From assembly GCA_042216015.1 (NCBI GenBank), contig JBDGUI010000008.1, positions 1 through 11,655 of the forward strand: a stretch of DNA of 11,655 bases, given 5' to 3'. The translations under genes were made by a program, and so were the position numbers. This stretch comes from Halodesulfurarchaeum sp. (GTDB lineage Archaea; Halobacteriota; Halobacteria; Halobacteriales; Halobacteriaceae). Each line of letters opens with the position of its first letter. Within the stretch, counting starts at the first letter, position 1. Below, piece after piece: positions 1-11,494 of this stretch. A model generated the notes under the pieces. That model saw only the letters and a list, made by a program, of their open reading frames with translations. It was not told the DNA's origin and made no database searches.

Positions 1-845
1 CTGTCCGGAACCTCGATCTTGTATTTCCCGTCCTCCCGGAGGGCGATGATGTGTTCCTCCCGGTCGTAGAGTTCCATCAGGTTGAGTTCGTACTGCCCCG
101 GCTCGACGATCCGGATGCTCTCGAACTGGTCGTTCAGTTCCGCTCGAAGAGTCTCGATATCGGTCGTCGCGGCCTCGTCCGGTTCGTCGACGACCCGGGC
201 GTTCTCGCGGGGGGGTCCGGTCGACTTGGACTCCGGAGGATCTCCGGATTGGACCGACTCGGTCTCGTCGCTCCCCGCGTCCGAAGGGGTCGGCGAGGAC
301 GTCGTCGAATCCGTGGTCGACCCGGTGCCCGTGGTTTCGGATTGAGACTGCGAGGAGAGATCCGACAGGTCGGCGACCTCGCCGCGGGCAGAGGCCTGAG
401 CCCGATCCTCTCGTGAGGGCTCACGCTTTGCTGAATCCTTCGCTCCCGTTTCGCCCCCGGAGGGTGCCGCGTCTGTGTGCGCCGTCTGCTCGTCGCTTTC
501 CGGGGACGGTGATTCGGTCCGGGTGGATTCGGCCTCCAGTTTCGATGGGGTGTCCTCGACTTCCGAAGGGGTATCCTCGACTGCGGTCGAGTCTGAGGAG
601 TCCTCGTCTCGTCGGGCATTGACGTATTCGCGGACGGACGAGGCCGCGCGGCCGACCCGTCCGGTCACCGAGTCTTCATCGATTGGCGGGTCGGGTGGGT
701 CGGTGGATTCGGGCTCGTACTGTGCCGGATCTGCGCCCTCTGGGATGTACTGGAAGGTGTTGCCGCCGCAGTGGGGACATCCAGAGAGCATCTCCTTTGA
801 CCCGTCGGGGAACACCGAGGCGCAGTTCGTACACTGGTGGGGCAT
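1..845 (-). CDS. oapC: Origin-associated protein C (Zn-ribbon protein, DUF2072/OapC type); 3' end truncated by the window edge
   Basis: Not in the ORF track because no stop lies inside the window. Manual translation from ATG at 845 gives MPHQCTNCASVFPDGSKEMLSGCPHCGGNTFQYIP (two CxxC motifs), then an acidic S/T/E/D/P-rich linker with EDRAQASARGEV, then C-terminal LRAELNDQFESIRIVEPGQYELNLMELYDREEHIIALREDGKYKIEVPD in the same frame. Starts 2 nt after the oapB stop. Confidence 0.9.
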   Translation of the reverse strand, partial: MPHQCTNCASVFPDGSKEMLSGCPHCGGNTFQYIPEGADPAQYEPESTDPPDPPIDEDSVTGRVGRAASSVREYVNARRDEDSSDSTAVEDTPSEVEDTPSKLEAESTRTESPSPESDEQTAHTDAAPSGGETGAKDSAKREPSREDRAQASARGEVADLSDLSSQSQSETTGTGSTTDSTTSSPTPSDAGSDETESVQSGDPPESKSTGPPRENARVVDEPDEAATTDIETLRAELNDQFESIRIVEPGQYELNLMELYDREEHIIALREDGKYKIEVPD

Positions 846-2411: not shown

Positions 2412-2438
2412 CCCCCACCCCTTTATTTCAACTGGAAC
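2412..2438 (-). promoter_or_regulatory. Origin recognition box (left ORB) with haloarchaeal G-string
   Basis: Reverse complement reads GTTCCAGTTGAAATAAAGGGGTGGGGG, matching the archaeal ORB consensus TTCCAGTGGAAAC-(N)-GGGG. Confidence 0.95.
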
Positions 2439-2614: not shown

Positions 2615-2642
2615 GTTCCAGTTGAAACAAAGGGGTGGGGGG
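2615..2642 (+). promoter_or_regulatory. Origin recognition box (right ORB) with G-string
   Basis: GTTCCAGTTGAAACAAAGGGGTGGGGGG; one mismatch to the left ORB over 27 nt, in inverted orientation. Confidence 0.95.
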
Positions 2643-3158
2643 TGAACGGTTAGCGACCGCCATCGTTCTCAAACAAATCTCGTCGCGATAACGCTATCAA
2701 ACTTCAAACAATAAAACCAAGTACTATCCGCTCACACGTTGGCCCGCTATCAAGGATGGTGACGTTCCGGGGATCACTCGATTCGGGGACGGATTCGACA
2801 ACCCAACGTGATCGAATCCGGTGAATTGACTTCAATCGAATCGTCCCTCATCGGGCCGTCTTCCAGGAGGAGTCGGGACAACTCGGTTCATCCACGACCG
2901 ATCTCCGTGAAACGGTCATAGTGAATCCCTGTGTACCAATGAATCGTGGCTCTCATCCCCCACACGCGGTTAACTGGCACCCGTTGAGAGGCAGCTGTTC
3001 TCCCGTGTGGAGGTGCTTGCGTACTCGCTGTTACTATCGCTGTTCTTCAGAAAGCTGTCCGTGTTCGAGGGCCAGGTCCCGATCACGATTGGGAGTACGG
3101 ACTTCCAACGGGATCGAGCGGATACCCACGATCGATTGGATCGATACTTTTTTGTCTA

Positions 3159-3193
3159 CCCCACACCCCCAGTTTCGTCTGCATCAACTGGAC
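3159..3193 (-). promoter_or_regulatory. Degenerate ORB with G-string upstream of cdc6
   Basis: Reverse complement is GTCCAGTTGATGCAGACGAAACTGGGGGTGTGGGG. It contains TGCAGACGAAAC plus a G-string, preceded by a TCCAGTTGA half site. Confidence 0.65.
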
Positions 3194-3270
3194 AGGACGT
3201 CTTATGGATCCTACCCCAAATCTCCTCGAAGAACACTCGTACACAGCATATCCGGGTGGTTCCGTTTCCT

Positions 3271-3290
3271 GTCGCACTTGAACCAAGGGG
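3271..3290 (+). promoter_or_regulatory. Mini-ORB-like site immediately upstream of the cdc6 start
   Basis: GTCGCACTTGAACCAAGGGG versus ORB GTTCCAGTTGAAACAAAGGGG; ends 10 nt before ATG 3301. Confidence 0.5.
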
Positions 3291-3300
3291 CCGGTTTGAT

Positions 3301-4782
3301 ATGGTAGAGGACACACCGAAACCCGGACACGCCGGGTCCGAACGCGCCTTCGACGTCGACCTCGATGAGGTGCTCGAAGAGGAATCCGAATCCGAACAGG
3401 GCCTGTTCGACGATCTCCTCTCGGGCGAACCCATCTTCGAGAACAAGGAGGTTCTTCGCCCGTCGTACACACCTCAGGAACTGCCCCACCGGAACGACCA
3501 GATCAACAAGATGGCGACGATTCTCGTCGCCGCCCTTCGCGGGGAAACCCCGTCGAACATTCTCATCTACGGCAAGACTGGGACGGGGAAGACCGCGAGC
3601 GCGAAGTACGTCAGCCAGGAACTCGAGAAGACCTCGGAGAAGTACGACGTGCCCTGTCGAGTCGAGTACATCAATTGTGAGGTGACCGACACCCAGTATC
3701 GCGTGCTCGCCCAGCTCGCGAACACCTTCATCGAACGGAACCAGGACTACGTCGAGGACAGGCTGGCCGACCTCCGTGATATCGAACAGCTTATTGAGGG
3801 GGGTTCGATGGCCATCGAGGAAACCGAGTTCGAGTCGATGACCGATCTCGAGGGCGAAATTCGGATGCTCGAGGCGGATCGCGAGGAGATGGAGATGGTC
3901 CCGATGACCGGCTGGCCGACCGACCGCGTGTACACGACATTCTTCGAGGCCGTCGACTACGTCGAGCGGGTGGCGGTCATCATGCTCGACGAGATCGACA
4001 AACTCGTCGAGAAGAGCGGTGACGACGTCCTCTACAATCTCTCCCGGATGAACTCCTCCCTCGATAACTCCCGGGTCTCGATCATCGGCATCTCCAATGA
4101 TCTCAAGTTCACCGACTTCCTCGACCCGCGGGTCAAATCCAGTCTCGGCGAGGAGGAGATCGTCTTCCCGCCCTACGACGCGAATCAGCTCCGGGACATT
4201 CTGACCCAGCGGGCCGACGTGGCGTTCAAGCCCGATGCCCTCTCGGAGGACGTCATCCCGCTCTGTGCCGCGTTTGCCGCCCAGGAGCACGGGGACGCAC
4301 GCCGCGCGCTCGACCTCCTCAGAACGGCCGGGGAACTGGGTGAGCGCGAACAGGCCACGGAGATCACCGAGGAACACGTCCGGAAGGCCCAGGACAAGAT
4401 CGAACTCGATCGCGTCGTCGAGGTCGTCCGCACCCTGCCGACACAGTCAAAACTCGTGCTCTATGCGATCGTCCTCCACGAGAAACACGGCGTCAGAAAC
4501 ATCAACACCGGCGAGGTCTACAACATCTACAAGCGGCTCTGTCGGGAGATCGACGCCGACGTGCTGACCCAGCGACGGGTGACCGACCTCATCAGCGAAC
4601 TCGACATGCTCGGGATCGTCAACGCGGTGGTCGTGAGCAAGGGACGCTACGGGCGGACCAAGGAGATTAGCCTCTCGGTCCCGGTCGAGGAGACCGAGAC
4701 CGTCCTGCAGGCCGACTCCAGAATCGGCGACGTCGGGGACGTGTCCCCCTTCCTCCAGGCCCGCTTCGACGGCGATCATTGA
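3301..4782 (+). CDS. orc1: Orc1/Cdc6 replication initiator (oriC1-associated, AAA+ plus winged helix)
   Basis: IFENKEVLRPSYTPQELPHR, Walker A GKTGTGKT, YINC, Walker B IMLDEIDKL, sensor HGDARRALDLL, and WH domain LTQRRVTDLISELDMLGIV...GRYGRTK. ATG 3301 chosen (493 aa) because acidic haloarchaeal composition begins there. Confidence 0.96.
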   Translation: MVEDTPKPGHAGSERAFDVDLDEVLEEESESEQGLFDDLLSGEPIFENKEVLRPSYTPQELPHRNDQINKMATILVAALRGETPSNILIYGKTGTGKTASAKYVSQELEKTSEKYDVPCRVEYINCEVTDTQYRVLAQLANTFIERNQDYVEDRLADLRDIEQLIEGGSMAIEETEFESMTDLEGEIRMLEADREEMEMVPMTGWPTDRVYTTFFEAVDYVERVAVIMLDEIDKLVEKSGDDVLYNLSRMNSSLDNSRVSIIGISNDLKFTDFLDPRVKSSLGEEEIVFPPYDANQLRDILTQRADVAFKPDALSEDVIPLCAAFAAQEHGDARRALDLLRTAGELGEREQATEITEEHVRKAQDKIELDRVVEVVRTLPTQSKLVLYAIVLHEKHGVRNINTGEVYNIYKRLCREIDADVLTQRRVTDLISELDMLGIVNAVVVSKGRYGRTKEISLSVPVEETETVLQADSRIGDVGDVSPFLQARFDGDH

Positions 4783-4795
4783 TCCGAAGTCGGGC

Positions 4796-4841
4796 CGCTT
4801 CGAAAAGTCGACGGAGTTCGCTTCGAAAAGCCGACGGAGTT
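4796..4841 (+). repeat. 23-bp tandem direct repeat (2 copies, 1 mismatch) upstream of the HTH gene
   Basis: CGCTTCGAAAAGTCGACGGAGTT (4796-4818) and CGCTTCGAAAAGCCGACGGAGTT (4819-4841). Confidence 0.9.
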
Positions 4842-4870: not shown

Positions 4871-5248
4871 ATGGTAGCTGGTCCGTTGGGAGGTGTCGAC
4901 ATCCCTGATTCCCAGGCCGTCTTTGATGCCCTCGAGGACGGCGACTGTCGTCGGATCATCGAACACCTCGAGGAGCCCCGAACGGCAAAGGAGCTCTCGG
5001 AGGACTGTGAGTTGCCCCTTTCGACGACCTATCGCAAACTCGACATTCTCACGGACGCGTCGCTGCTTTCCGAACGAACGGTCATCCAGTCCGACGGCCA
5101 TCACACGACGCAGTACGAGGTCGCCTTCGAGGAGGTCACGATCGAACTGGACGAGGACCATCGGATCGCCATCGGAATTCAGCGCGCGTCCGAATCGACG
5201 GACGAGCGCCTCGAAACACTGTGGGCGGAGGTTCGACGCGAAACATGA
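4871..5248 (+). CDS. Winged helix-turn-helix transcriptional regulator (ArsR-like, haloarchaeal type)
   Basis: VFDALEDGDCRRIIEHLEEPRTAKELSEDCELPLSTTYRKLDILTDASLLSER...DGHHTTQY is a wHTH with wing; C-terminal ERLETLWAEVR. ATG 4871 is preferred over TTG 4868. Confidence 0.85.
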   Translation: MVAGPLGGVDIPDSQAVFDALEDGDCRRIIEHLEEPRTAKELSEDCELPLSTTYRKLDILTDASLLSERTVIQSDGHHTTQYEVAFEEVTIELDEDHRIAIGIQRASESTDERLETLWAEVRRET

Positions 5249-5520: not shown

Positions 5521-5667
5521 CCGGCTCGGCACACGTCCGCTGCGGAATTGCGCACATCCATCACCGAGCGCCAAAATAGGCTCGGTGGACCGGCAACCAT
5601 CGACCCGCGGAAACGCCATCGTCCTGACCATCGAACACGGGATGCGCGCTTCCGCTTGTCATCTCGA

Positions 5668-6585
5668 TCACGCGACTGCCGAGGGATGTCTGACTGCCAG
5701 TTGGCCAATGGCCATTCCAGTCACTCCGGCCCCCATCGTTGCCGGGCCCGGAAGTTCCAGGTCCGCGGCCCAGAGTCTGATCCACCCGAGCCATGGGATT
5801 CTGAGGACCGCGGTCCCCCGGACCCACTCCGGTTTCACGACCGAGCTGATTCCCCGGGTCTGATCGTAGTAATCGTTCGTGACCGGGTTGTCACCCTTCG
5901 TGATGAACCCGTCAGTGGGGGCCGGGCAGGCGGCCAGTGCTTCACAGGAGTTCGCCTGGATCAGGTCGGGATTGGCCCGGTCGTACCAGTTCTCCCCCTC
6001 CTCGACGTACAGGCGGGCCCGATGGATGATCGGCGTGGCCGATTCTTTCCCGTAGGGCTGATAGACGATGACGTCGCCGGGTCCACCGAACCGATAGTAC
6101 CCCTCTTTGGCCCCAACCTGGGCGGTCACGACTCCGGTTTCCGCGGCGGCGTAGTCGGGGGAGAATCGTTCTTCCTCCATCACGAGCACGAGGTCGCCCT
6201 TCTGTAGGTGGGGCTCCATGCTGCCACTTTCGACGGCGACCAGCGGCGGCCACACCCCGCTCACCACGTACAGCAACAGACCGACGGCGACCACGATGAG
6301 GACACTCACGAGAATCTCCCGGAGGAATGCCACCCACTCGGAGTCCGTCCGTCGGAACCAGCCGAGTGCTTCCCTCAACCCGTCCCGCGGATCGGGCTCC
6401 TCCTCGGGACTGGTGAACGTCGGTGGCGGCGTCGACCCGGCGGATTCAGCCCGATTCCCTTTGGAACTCCCAATCGCTTCGGGGTGTCCGCCCCCCTGGG
6501 CTCCGCCATTCGGTTCTGGAATCCCATCACTGGCGGACCGAGGATCGTCCCGACGTGGCTCTTCGCCCCCCTCCTCGCGACCCAT
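5668..6585 (-). CDS. sec11: Signal peptidase I, S26 family (Sec11-type)
   Basis: TM anchor followed by VAVESGSMEP (catalytic Ser), GDL, PIIHRA (catalytic His), FITKGDN, and RIPWLGWIRL. ATG 6585 chosen because a TTGAAA TATA-like box lies about 25-30 nt upstream. Confidence 0.9.
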   Translation of the reverse strand: MGREEGGEEPRRDDPRSASDGIPEPNGGAQGGGHPEAIGSSKGNRAESAGSTPPPTFTSPEEEPDPRDGLREALGWFRRTDSEWVAFLREILVSVLIVVAVGLLLYVVSGVWPPLVAVESGSMEPHLQKGDLVLVMEEERFSPDYAAAETGVVTAQVGAKEGYYRFGGPGDVIVYQPYGKESATPIIHRARLYVEEGENWYDRANPDLIQANSCEALAACPAPTDGFITKGDNPVTNDYYDQTRGISSVVKPEWVRGTAVLRIPWLGWIRLWAADLELPGPATMGAGVTGMAIGQLAVRHPSAVA

Positions 6586-6677: not shown

Positions 6678-8411
6678 GTGCCGCGATCTTCACCGGTCCG
6701 TATCGTCAAACGCCTGACGAAGGCCGGACTCAACGCCGACCGCGAGGCGGTTACCCTCCTCGCCAGCGCGGCGAATCCGGACCGGGCCGTCGAACGGGTC
6801 ATCGACCGGATGGACGAGGAGACGGTGACCCTCCAGACCGAAGACGTGCGAACGGTACTCGAAGACGCTCGCGTCAGGTCGGGAGGCGAGGCCGATTCGA
6901 ACCCGAGTTCGGGGCCGCCAGATACCACCATTTCGGGTGGAGGTGAAAACGACGAAAACCAAAATACGGCAATCGATTCTTCACCTGAAATAAAGGGGGT
7001 GGAAACGGCCAATTCCGATGGGACTGGAGTTTCGAAATCATCGAGCACTATAACCCCAGGTGGCGAACCCACGACTCCTGCATCGTCGGGTGCGGAACCG
7101 GTGACCCCTGTGTCTTCCGGTCGGGAGCGGACGGATTCGGATGCCCGACCCCCGAACCGGTCGACTGAAACCTCGCCCACCCGGGATACCGAGTCGAGTC
7201 GAAATCCGGAACCGCCGACGATCTCGGGGGACGTGACGGGCGAAAGCACCGGAACCGGCGTCTACGAGGACTTCGTGGCCGTGTTCCGGGACCGGTACGA
7301 ACGCCTCTCCGCGATGCTTCGGGGACGGGTCAACCATCGTCCGACGGACGCCCTCGAAAACATGGCCGGCGGATCCGACGCCGCCCTCATCGGGATGGTC
7401 ACGGACGTCCGCTCGACACGCAACGGTCACCGGCTGATCGACCTCGAGGACACGAATGGGACCTTCCCGGCGCTGGTGATGAAGGACCGGGAGTTCGCCG
7501 GGAGGGTCGACGAACTCCTGCTCGATGAGGTGATCGGCGTCGAGGGAACCCTCGCGGACGACTCGGGAATCATCTTCGTCGATCAACTCTACTTCCCCGA
7601 CGTCCCGAGAACGTTCACGCCCCAGACCGCCGACCGCCACGTCCAGGCCGCCCTCGTGAGCGATCTCCACGTCGGGAGCCAGGAGTTCCTGGCCGACGCC
7701 TGGGACCGGTTCACCGACTGGTTGCACGGGCCCGCGGGCGCGAACGTGGAGTATCTCCTGATCGCCGGGGACATGGTCGAGGGGGTAGGGGTCTATCCCG
7801 GTCAGGACGACGAACTCGACGTCGTGGACATCTACGAGCAGTACGAGCACTTCGCCGAGCGGCTGAAGGCCGTTCCCGGCGACATGGAGCTCGTCATGAT
7901 CCCGGGGAACCACGACGCCGTCCGGCTGGCCGAACCGCAACCAGCCTTCGAGCCGGAACTCAGGGAGATCATGGCCGCCCACGATGCGACGATCACCGCG
8001 AATCCCTCGCTGGTCGAGATCGAGGGGGTCTCGATCCTCATGTACCACGGCGTCTCACTCGACGAACTCGTCGCCGAACTCCCCCTCGAGTCGGTGAGCT
8101 ACGACCATCCCGCCCGGGCGATGGCCCAGCTCGTGAAAAAGCGCCATCTGGCCCCGACGTTCGGGGGCAAGAACCGGATCGCCCCGGAGAAACGGGACTA
8201 CCTCGTGATCGAGGAGGTCCCGGACGTCGTCCACTCGGGGCACGTCCACAAGCTGGGTGTCGACGCGTATCACGACGTTCGCCTGATCAATTCGGGATGC
8301 TTCCAGGGACAGACCGCATTCCAGCGCAGCGTCAACATCGATCCCGACACCGGAACGGTTCCAATTCTCGACCTCGACACCCTCGACGTGACCGTCCGAA
8401 AGTTCACGTGA
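6678..8411 (+). CDS. polD1: DNA polymerase D small subunit DP1 (3'-5' proofreading exonuclease, calcineurin-like phosphoesterase)
   Basis: N-terminal (V/M)PRSSPVRIVKRLTKAGLNADREAVTLLA, a low-complexity linker, an OB fold (GMVTDVRSTRNGH...LEDTNG), and the motifs SDLHVGS, IAGDMVEG, PGNHDAVR, YHGVSLD, GHVH, QTAFQ. GTG at 6678 is the likely start (577 aa). Confidence 0.95.
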   Translation: MPRSSPVRIVKRLTKAGLNADREAVTLLASAANPDRAVERVIDRMDEETVTLQTEDVRTVLEDARVRSGGEADSNPSSGPPDTTISGGGENDENQNTAIDSSPEIKGVETANSDGTGVSKSSSTITPGGEPTTPASSGAEPVTPVSSGRERTDSDARPPNRSTETSPTRDTESSRNPEPPTISGDVTGESTGTGVYEDFVAVFRDRYERLSAMLRGRVNHRPTDALENMAGGSDAALIGMVTDVRSTRNGHRLIDLEDTNGTFPALVMKDREFAGRVDELLLDEVIGVEGTLADDSGIIFVDQLYFPDVPRTFTPQTADRHVQAALVSDLHVGSQEFLADAWDRFTDWLHGPAGANVEYLLIAGDMVEGVGVYPGQDDELDVVDIYEQYEHFAERLKAVPGDMELVMIPGNHDAVRLAEPQPAFEPELREIMAAHDATITANPSLVEIEGVSILMYHGVSLDELVAELPLESVSYDHPARAMAQLVKKRHLAPTFGGKNRIAPEKRDYLVIEEVPDVVHSGHVHKLGVDAYHDVRLINSGCFQGQTAFQRSVNIDPDTGTVPILDLDTLDVTVRKFT

Positions 8412-10559: not shown

Positions 10560-11471
10560 CTACCGCGAGCCCAACGATGTCGGCTCGGCTCCCCCCTCGA
10601 CCACGGTCTCGACGAACAGTTCTCCGGCGCGGTAGGACGACCGAACAGTCGGCCCGGCAGCGACGTACCGGAAGCCGAGTTCCTCGCCGAACTCACGGTA
10701 GGCTTCGAACTGCTTCGGTGGCACGTAATTCTCGACCTCGGGATGGGCACTCGAGGGCCGGAGGTACTGGCCCACGGTCAGAAAGTCGACGGCCGCTCCC
10801 CGGAGGTCCCCCATCGCCTCCCGAATCTCTGGTTCGGTCTCACCGAAGCCAACCATGAGCGAACTCTTCGTGAAGATCGAGGAATCCAGGTTCTTGACCT
10901 CCTCCAGAACCGAGAGGGACTGGGAGTAGCCAGCCCGAAAGTCCCGCACCTCGGCCTGGAGGCGCCTGACCGTCTCCACGTTGTGCCCGATCACGTCTGG
11001 CCCGGCCCGGACGATCTCCCGGAGGGACTCGGTCGACCCGCCGAAGTCCGGAATGAGCACCTCGATCCGCGTCTCGGGATTTCGATCGGCGACGCGTTCG
11101 ATGCACTCGGCGAAGTGGGCGGCCCCGCCGTCCGGAAGGTCGTCGCGGTCCACCGACGTGATGACGGCGTACGCGAGATCGAGATCGGCGACGGCCTCGG
11201 CGAGCCGATCGGGTTCGGTGGGGTCGGGGGTCCCCTCGGCCGGAACGCCGGTGGGGACATCACAGAAGTCACAGTTCCGGGTACAGGTATCCCCCATGAT
11301 CATGAACGTCGCCGTGCGCTCTTGGGCCCAGCATTCCTCGCGGTTCGGGCAGGAGGCCGACTCGCAGACGGTGTGAAGCGATCGGTCCGCCACCGTCTCG
11401 TGGACGGCGTGGTGTCGGCGCTCCACGCCGGAGAGTTCCTCGCGTATCCAGTCCGGCTTGGGACGGGCCAT
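10560..11471 (-). CDS. lipA: Lipoyl synthase (radical SAM)
   Basis: KPDW; auxiliary-cluster motif CESASCPNREEC (CX4CX5C); radical SAM motif CTRNCDFC; ITSVDRDDLPDGGA; HNVETV; GQYLRP; RSSY. Confidence 0.96.
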   Translation of the reverse strand: MARPKPDWIREELSGVERRHHAVHETVADRSLHTVCESASCPNREECWAQERTATFMIMGDTCTRNCDFCDVPTGVPAEGTPDPTEPDRLAEAVADLDLAYAVITSVDRDDLPDGGAAHFAECIERVADRNPETRIEVLIPDFGGSTESLREIVRAGPDVIGHNVETVRRLQAEVRDFRAGYSQSLSVLEEVKNLDSSIFTKSSLMVGFGETEPEIREAMGDLRGAAVDFLTVGQYLRPSSAHPEVENYVPPKQFEAYREFGEELGFRYVAAGPTVRSSYRAGELFVETVVEGGAEPTSLGSR

Positions 11472-11494
11472 GACCCCCCTAGTGGCTGAGACGG

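Follow-up and report, generated by a model that had tools for sequence, protein, structure and literature searches.

Inverted ORB-type elements in the polD1 coding sequence of Halodesulfurarchaeum, a probable weak copy of a class-wide cis-element of Halobacteria

The stretch of DNA analyzed here (hereafter the window) comprises 11,655 nt of a Halodesulfurarchaeum sp. assembly and contains polD1, the gene for DP1, the small subunit of the archaeal DNA polymerase PolD. Inside polD1, at 6921-7002, two elements of the origin recognition box (ORB) type, the recognition sequences of the initiator Orc1/Cdc6, form an inverted pair with their TCCA ends facing inward, 38 bp apart. The pair falls within the part of the gene that encodes the disordered DP1 linker, and 4.3 kb separate it from the ORB pair of the replication origin oriC1. 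Comparison with other haloarchaea suggests that this segment is probably a rather weak copy of a cis-element found class-wide in Halobacteria and built of two inverted ORB-type Orc1/Cdc6 recognition sequences. The element is very likely an ORB-type element at the DNA level, and by analogy with characterized ORBs it is likely bound by Orc1, at least in species whose arms are strong. Its function could, tentatively, be that of an auxiliary and dispensable helper or modulator of oriC1, acting as a local Orc1 store or within a looped higher-order complex.

An inverted ORB-type pair in polD1 and its distribution

The reverse arm, read on the minus strand, contains the mini-ORB core TCCA-N3-GAAA(C/T) exactly (TCCACCCGAAAT; the reverse complement of 6925-6942 is CTCCACCCGAAATGGTGG), has no G-run, with GGTGGTAT in its place, matches the ORB pattern at 11/17 positions and lies in frame 2. 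Its GTGGTAT variant is shared by congeners. In the forward arm, the core deviates at one position (TTCA for TCCA; TTCACCTGAAAT); this arm possesses the G-run (AAAGGGGG), matches the pattern at 15/17 positions and lies in frame 0. The relative orientation of the two arms is that of the oriC ORBs, TCCA ends inward and G-runs outward. An earlier interpretation of this DNA made without database searches (the sequence-only reading) had described this orientation, and its coordinates and letters for 6978-7002 (+) and 6925-6942 (-) are correct.

The polD1 arms resemble the genome's own origin ORBs beyond chance. The 13-mer TGAAATAAAGGGG, which the sequence-only reading had pointed out as common to the forward element and the left oriC ORB, has exactly two copies in the 1.68-Mb assembly, one at 2418 (-) in the left oriC ORB and one at 6986 (+) in polD1, with 0.011 occurrences per genome expected from base composition; any 13-mer of either oriC ORB is expected 0.0048 times in the window. 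The match stands out because it is a contiguous AT-rich block in a GC-rich genome. A plain Hamming scan with the 27-mer ORBs gave 18/27 identities, tied with seven other non-ORB sites in the assembly, and such a mismatch scan, being uninformative, was replaced by composition-aware matrices. The full ORB matrix, whose only input was 119 distinct ORBs from the oriC1 regions of other, named haloarchaea, scored only six sites above 8 bits in the whole assembly, namely the oriC ORBs (42.2 and 37.6 bits), a pair on contig C6 (36.8 and 24.7 bits), the polD1 forward element (19.7 bits, rank 5) and one weak site. With a 16-nt core matrix, the reverse element ranked 10th genome-wide (16.8 bits) and the forward element 11th. 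On the full matrix, the reverse arm gained only 5.7 bits. Chance likeness in low-complexity coding DNA could appeal to the tied 18/27 identity, but its probability is negligible given the 13-mer expectation and the matrix rank of the forward element, and the class-wide census below, with an empty control, refutes it already.

For the comparative analysis, loci were picked by DP1 protein similarity alone (29 relatives and 80 named records), and simple peptide anchors recognized the DP1 open reading frame (ORF) in 107/109 of them, missing two; they contained 99 distinct module sequences. Loci L031-L067, which had been selected by pattern, were excluded from frequency estimates. Among the relatives, DP1 linkers are hypervariable, in length as well as sequence, and only two short islands stand out, (D/N)(P/T)(S/T)VS(T/G)G and (S)P-x-E-T-K-G. 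In nucleotide terms, the first island is a reverse-complemented ORB and the second an ORB in direct orientation. In 20/27 of the relatives' DP1 genes, two 21-nt patterns lie exactly 34 nt apart, with the forward arm always in frame 0 and the reverse arm in frame 2; the same pattern gap of 34 nt was found in 108/123 loci having both elements. Among the 99 distinct modules, the forward element matches at least 13/17 specified positions in 89, both arms are present at the canonical gap in 71, and the gap is one codon shorter in 6. The consensus reads gAccCCtC.GtTTC.acTGGA - 38 bp - cTcCA...GAAACgaaGGGG, and most other genera carry the G-run GAGGGG or AAGGGG on both arms. When scored with a matrix from oriC1 ORBs only, both linker elements exceeded 18 bits in 42/79 named loci and one did so in 22.

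The spacer between the arms is fixed in length across the class and free in sequence, without conserved columns in 71 modules. Its GC content averages 0.63 over these modules, and the 0.40 of the present genome is the minimum, low spacer GC being confined to this genus. The A-rich, GC-poor spacer noted by the sequence-only reading therefore exists here (14 G+C in the 35 nt of 6943-6977) and is not a conserved property; the idea that an AT-rich spacer serves as a mini unwinding element was rejected for this reason.

A strict module pattern (TTC-N3-TGGA-N40-CA-N3-GAAA-N4-GGG) was present in 229/401 Halobacteria genomes, and its reversed form, used as control, in none. Matches usually represent one site, often reported on both strands because the module is symmetric, and 30/30 sampled sites were inside the DP1 ORF. 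By family, strict matches were found in 72/85, 76/98, 8/8, 6/7, 13/22, 49/154 (one large family), 0/11, 0/3, and 0/2 genomes. In 39/41 relatives, the genome contains 1-8 matches to a strict ORB pattern (control 0), grouped at oriC1 and polD1. Because the genomes are related and hence not independent, counts across them overstate significance; the reversed-pattern control and the internal codon control described below are free of this kinship problem. Judged from these comparisons, the module is widespread and old within the class. Outside it, a spacing-relaxed pattern matched 9 times in 254 other Halobacteriota genomes (6 for the control), and no match resembled the inverted module; five DP1 genes from other, non-halobacterial Halobacteriota classes have short linkers, and 0/5 contain the core motif.

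Module loss is concentrated in the large family with 49/154 matches, compared with 72/85 and 76/98 in two others. The named Haloferax loci have weak arms, and origin-less Haloferax strains are viable. If the 49/154 family is that of Haloferax, relaxed selection on origin accessories would fit.

Constraint on the nucleotide sequence

Codon usage within the arms differs sharply from that of the surrounding gene. In 24 relatives, the motif codons are TCT for 17/20 Ser, xCA in 24/24 (encoding P, A, T, or S), GAA in 24/24 and GGG for 23/23 Gly, compared with gene-wide DP1 usage of 7.2% of Ser for TCT, 7.6% of Pro for CCA, 32% of Glu for GAA, 33% of Gly for GGG, and about 6-8% for codons matching xCA. 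As the sequence-only reading had remarked, the present forward arm also uses unusual codons, for TCT, TCA (5.6% of Ser), and CCT (4.7% of Pro) are all rare across DP1 genes. An internal control with the same phylogeny was provided by 149 invariant-amino-acid columns in the folded part of the same 24 proteins, where synonymous sites are scrambled; the top-codon share has a mean of 0.59 and a maximum of 0.79 over 19 invariant-Gly columns, and a maximum of 0.71 over 14 invariant-Pro columns, in which CCA is never the top codon.

Over 71 modules, the arm third positions are T 71/71, T 71/71, A 69/71, T 67/71, A 70/71, A 71/71, G 71/71, and G 69/71, whereas first positions vary (e.g., T32/G26/A12). 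Third positions are thus held on rare A/T-ending codons (TCT, xCA, GAA, GTT, and GGA) as first positions and amino acids change. Furthermore, the arms encode unlike peptides, (D)PSVSTG and SPxETKG, and yet are reverse complements of each other; protein function cannot explain unlike peptides from reverse-complementary DNA at a fixed distance. The codon-position evidence indicates that the module is kept by selection on the nucleotide sequence and not on the peptide. Together with the matrix ranks, the frozen synonymous sites bear out the proposal of the sequence-only reading that the two motifs are ORB-type elements in dual-coding DNA, and its prediction that orthologous polD1 genes would carry the motifs, encode peptides of the form VSTG ... 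P-V/P-ETKG, and show depressed synonymous change came true.

Two other explanations for the conservation have to be considered. The islands might be short linear peptide motifs of DP1, or the rare codons a translational pause, with the ORB likeness incidental; (D)PSVSTG and SPxETKG are indeed recognizable across genera, and a peptide role may exist in addition to the DNA role. Nevertheless, third positions are more conserved than first positions, S, T, A, and P interchange at the xCA codon and the nucleotides stay, and the reverse-complementary DNA at fixed distance fits a matrix derived from oriC1 ORBs only, whereas a pause would predict rare codons in general rather than these exact ones. 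The codon-position evidence largely refutes this explanation, which we regard as very improbable. The inverted repeat might otherwise be maintained as an mRNA hairpin or DNA cruciform, given that the arms can pair in principle, in this genome with G-U pairs. However, variable mirrored columns agree about as often as in shuffles (72 distinct modules: 56 vs 49%, 50 vs 47%, 68 vs 63%, and 31 vs 30%), and the central NNN is identical between the arms in only 12/72. With no compensatory change, the hairpin or cruciform was rejected and is, if anything, slightly less credible than the peptide. The lack of covariation between the arms implies conservation to the ORB consensus arm by arm.

Precedents and possible roles beside oriC1

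The kind of site is already known from Pyrococcus, which overturns the statement of the sequence-only reading that it knew of no comparable description. As reported in the accessible parts of Matsunaga et al. 2007 (PMC1904270), chromatin immunoprecipitation on microarrays (ChIP-chip) in Pyrococcus abyssi located Cdc6/Orc1 almost solely on a 5-kb region, and ChIP and gel shifts showed the protein on both ORB clusters, including one inside dp1, with half-binding at 240 nM for ORB3 compared with 150 nM for ORB1 and 110 nM for ORB2. The organization of the dp1 ORB cluster is conserved in Thermococcales, and the authors compared it with Bacillus subtilis, in which dnaA has DnaA-box clusters on both sides, and considered looping as a possibility (PMC1904270). 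The haloarchaeal form, a precisely spaced, in-frame inverted pair, is apparently undescribed; we did not find it in the literature searched, and papers beyond the openly searchable ones could hold a description. PMC3528665 contains no mention of polD or DP1, and the accessible parts of PMC1868953, PMC7776575, and PMC4010727 mention DP1 or oriC1 and contain no ORB inside polD1. Haloarchaeal Orc1 ChIP data were likewise not found in the literature searched.

The module shares with the Thermococcales dp1 cluster the presence of initiator sites inside the coding region of the small PolD subunit, beside oriC and orc1/cdc6, which places ORB clusters on both sides of the initiator gene, and conservation at the level of an order or class. 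It differs in composition, since the Thermococcales cluster is made of several 13-bp mini-ORBs and one 23-bp ORB, a make-up that is not found here; the haloarchaeal module has two full ORBs (core and G-run in most genera), inverted, 38 bp apart and in one reading frame, and the long disordered linker harboring it is peculiar to haloarchaeal DP1. The halo-ORB pair of oriC1 (Norais et al. 2007, accessible parts of PMC1868953) has the same motif (TCCA-N3-GAAAC-R-AAGGGG...), orientation, and presumed reader, Orc1. The oriC1 arms, however, are about 180-330 bp apart (176 nt here) with an AT-rich element between them and a long halophile G-string, whereas the polD1 arms are 38 bp apart with a coding spacer of average GC and a short G-run. 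The AT-rich unwinding element that lies between the inverted ORBs of an origin is thus missing from the polD1 module.

Bacterial systems provide looser parallels. In the bipartite origin of B. subtilis, named in the accessible parts of PMC1904270, the initiator gene is also flanked by two clusters of initiator sites; there, however, both clusters are needed for origin function, whereas some lineages do without the polD1 module, and it persists in genomes where it is separated from orc1. A further bipartite bacterial origin, likewise with initiator sites on both sides of the initiator gene, is oriC1/oriC2 of Helicobacter pylori. In Escherichia coli, the intergenic datA locus also gathers initiator sites away from the origin; it depends on IHF and promotes DnaA-ATP hydrolysis. 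The polD1 module resembles it in being outside the origin and differs in being in coding DNA.

In known ORB complexes, one Orc1 monomer sits on each ORB with a fixed polarity, the winged helix on the core and the AAA+ domain on the G-run (accessible parts of PMC7776575). By analogy with this polarity and with the Pyrococcus dp1 cluster, one Orc1 monomer per arm would bind the polD1 linker head to head. The geometry would be that around the oriC1 unwinding element, at a distance of only 38 bp and without meltable DNA. A second Orc1-binding station beside oriC1 would render the origin region bipartite in the usual gene order. Such a site would bind the initiator without firing as an origin, because its spacer is short, coding, and not AT-rich. 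In the present genome, the weak reverse arm may allow reduced or one-sided binding.

In most named loci, the oriC1 ORB pair and orc1 are located about 3-4 kb upstream of the module, so that orc1 is flanked by ORB clusters. The module travels with polD1, and changes of distance and orientation are tolerated. In Haladaptatus halobius, 19 kb separate polD1 from oriC1, with orc1 on the other side of the origin; the distance is 12 kb in a second Haladaptatus and 13-15 kb, in the opposite orientation, in Halomicrococcus, the module being intact in all three. The forward arm is degenerate in Halobellus clavatus, where the distance is about 32 kb, and in Halolamina, where orc1 is inverted and 6.5 kb downstream, both arms are weak with the spacing kept. 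In every genome examined, polD1 is within about 32 kb of the origin.

Several observations weigh against the proposal of a class-wide Orc1-binding helper of oriC1. The strict pattern is absent from 172/401 genomes. Of ten genera without a strict match that were sampled for the state of the module, some have only changed the spacing, with both arms strong (g20, 3 nt shorter; g84, 9 nt longer); others have lost one arm (g19, g63, g56, g25, and largely g36), have both arms decayed (g44 and g57), or have nothing left (g33). Being missing or decayed in some genera, the module is dispensable. In the present genome it is weak, with TTCA in the forward arm and a reverse arm without G-run at 5.7 bits. 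Orc1 occupancy in haloarchaea is predicted by analogy with Pyrococcus. The oriC1 intergenic fragment alone confers autonomously replicating sequence (ARS) activity in Haloferax (accessible parts of PMC1868953), and the sufficiency of this minimal fragment means that the module is not needed for basic origin function. Moreover, its intactness where polD1 no longer flanks orc1 weakens a strict reading in which two clusters flank orc1, and a polD1-coupled or trans-acting role fits these cases as well.

One such alternative is control of the polymerase gene itself: Orc1 on its site within polD1 would act as a transcriptional roadblock or attenuator and tie the supply of DP1 to the initiator level, the link to oriC1 being only historical. 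The module has never been found detached from polD1, moves with it, and remains intact when oriC1 is 12-19 kb away, irrespective of side and orientation; two distant orders have ORB clusters in dp1, and in 9/80 named loci an additional ORB follows 16-164 nt after the polD1 stop. Nevertheless, the site is at least 250 nt inside the coding region rather than at the promoter, and co-travel is expected under any model, because the site cannot leave the gene unless a new one arises elsewhere. In Haloferax volcanii, polD1 (HVO_0003) has no entry in thresholded tables of transcription start sites and 3' ends (PMC4983044, two files; PMC7237163, one file), which favors neither a roadblock nor an internal promoter or terminator in this gene and is weak evidence, as the Haloferax arms are weak. 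We consider control of polD1 unlikely. A datA-like buffering role, in which origin-proximal, early-replicated sites would sequester or inactivate Orc1 in trans after initiation, appears still less probable. It would agree with the location of the module outside the origin proper but always near it (up to about 32 kb in the genomes examined), with the tolerance to distance and orientation, and with an architecture resembling an origin without unwinding element. However, two sites per chromosome would be few for titration in polyploid cells, and their constant distance is more suggestive of a defined complex than of simple sinks. The auxiliary role at oriC1 remains our preferred, if tentative, suggestion.

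It is also conceivable, at rather long odds, that the module is a pseudo-origin, in which a head-to-head Orc1 pair at 38 bp would regulate oriC1 licensing or couple initiator occupancy to PolD supply, with ancestry shared with the Pyrococcus dp1 cluster. In that case, the Orc1-dp1 link would be an ancient, overlooked part of euryarchaeal replication control. Our results extend a nearly forgotten observation in Pyrococcus to a second, genetically tractable class and sharpen it into a defined object with two sites, a fixed distance, and a fixed frame. Because the module can be recoded synonymously with the protein untouched, the role of non-origin initiator sites in archaea becomes testable in Haloarcula, Halobacterium, or Haloferax. 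The lineage pattern provides comparative material, as the arms are strong in the Haloarcula-like and Natrialba-like families and have decayed in parts of the Haloferax family. The module is furthermore a clear example of dual coding in nature: the sole conserved "peptide motifs" of a hypervariable disordered linker are there owing to the constraint of a DNA-binding site, a warning that conserved islands in disordered regions need not be protein interaction motifs.

Other features of the window and genome

The assembly comprises 1.68 Mb in 51 contigs at 64.5% GC, and the window is part of contig C37. Its gene content is that of a classical haloarchaeal oriC1 neighborhood (Table 1). The two oriC ORBs, each 27 nt long, are 96% complementary and enclose 176 nt. 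The polD1 ORF is open from 6423, with a likely GTG start at 6678 that aligns with the starts of relatives. The encoded DP1 has an N-terminal domain, the long disordered low-complexity linker holding the module, and the phosphodiesterase (catalytic) domain, in this order; its C-terminal part is 91% identical to the closest named records, metagenome-assembled genomes of Halodesulfurarchaeum.

Table 1. Coordinates of the ORB-type elements and neighboring features in the window
Feature	Position	Strand	Remarks
Reverse ORB-type element	6921-6943	-	Minus-strand reading C-TCCA-CCC-GAAAT-GGTGGTATC; sense strand encodes D-T-T-I-S-G-G
Forward ORB-type element	6978-7002	+	TCT TCA CCT GAA ATA AAG GGG GTG G = S-S-P-E-I-K-G-V; letters TCTTCACCTGAAATAAAGGGGGTGG
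Spacer, inner TGGA to T(T)CA	6942-6979		38 bp
Whole module by class-wide strict pattern	6932-6997	+	
OapC and GTPase genes		-	
AT-rich stretch			GC minimum 0.43; framed by the 27-nt inverted ORB pair; presumed unwinding element
Left oriC1 ORB	2412-2438	-	Minus-strand reading GTTCCAGTTGAAATAAAGGGGTGGGGG; 37.6 bits (oriC1-ORB matrix)
Right oriC1 ORB	2615-2641	+	42.2 bits (oriC1-ORB matrix)
orc1/cdc6 initiator gene	3007-4782 (ORF limits)	+	Cdc6_C, Cdc6_lid, and AAA domains; between oriC1 and the polD1 module
Small helix-turn-helix (HTH) gene	Between orc1 and polD1		
polD1 (DP1, PolD small subunit)	6678-8411	+	PF04042, Metallophos; 39/41 relatives match

The orc1 ORF is 591 aa long, and its AAA+ domain begins only near residue 158; it has either a long N-terminal extension or an upstream in-frame run preceding the true start, which is probably later than the ORF start at 3007. 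Inside this ORF are two weak ORB-like sites (17/27) at 3159-3185 (-) and 3271-3297 (+). An ORF of 219 aa between the HTH gene and polD1 (5548-6207, +) and one of 248 aa at 10743-11489 (+) have no Pfam match even at E = 0.01. Upstream of the left oriC ORB are two 15-nt direct repeats (TGTTCTCAATCGGCA twice and ATGACGAGTTCCRTA twice, at 2020-2054 and 2081-2110), and within the AT-rich element there is a perfect 12-nt inverted repeat (2556-2567 / 2599-2610).

The nine named loci with a further ORB past the polD1 stop (L082, L085, L105, L117, L130, L132, L135, L138, and L143) have strong sites there, at 25-34 bits; in one of them, Halarchaeum acidiphilum (L132), the linker module is absent. The present window has no such ORB past the polD1 stop (best score about -19 bits). 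A second strong ORB set outside oriC1 is found on contig C6, with a site at 780-806 (+) and minus-strand cores at 4822, 4933-4959, and 5005. These ORBs converge over about 4.1 kb containing spermidine-synthase-like, HMG-CoA reductase, and thioredoxin-like genes, after which come CGI-121 and a helicase of the Hel308 type. Seven relatives within the genus likewise have a strict-ORB pair in +/- arrangement, its members separated by 2.4-8.5 kb (by about 4 kb in 5/7). Where this pair and the oriC1 ORBs share a contig, the distance between them is about 25-30 kb.

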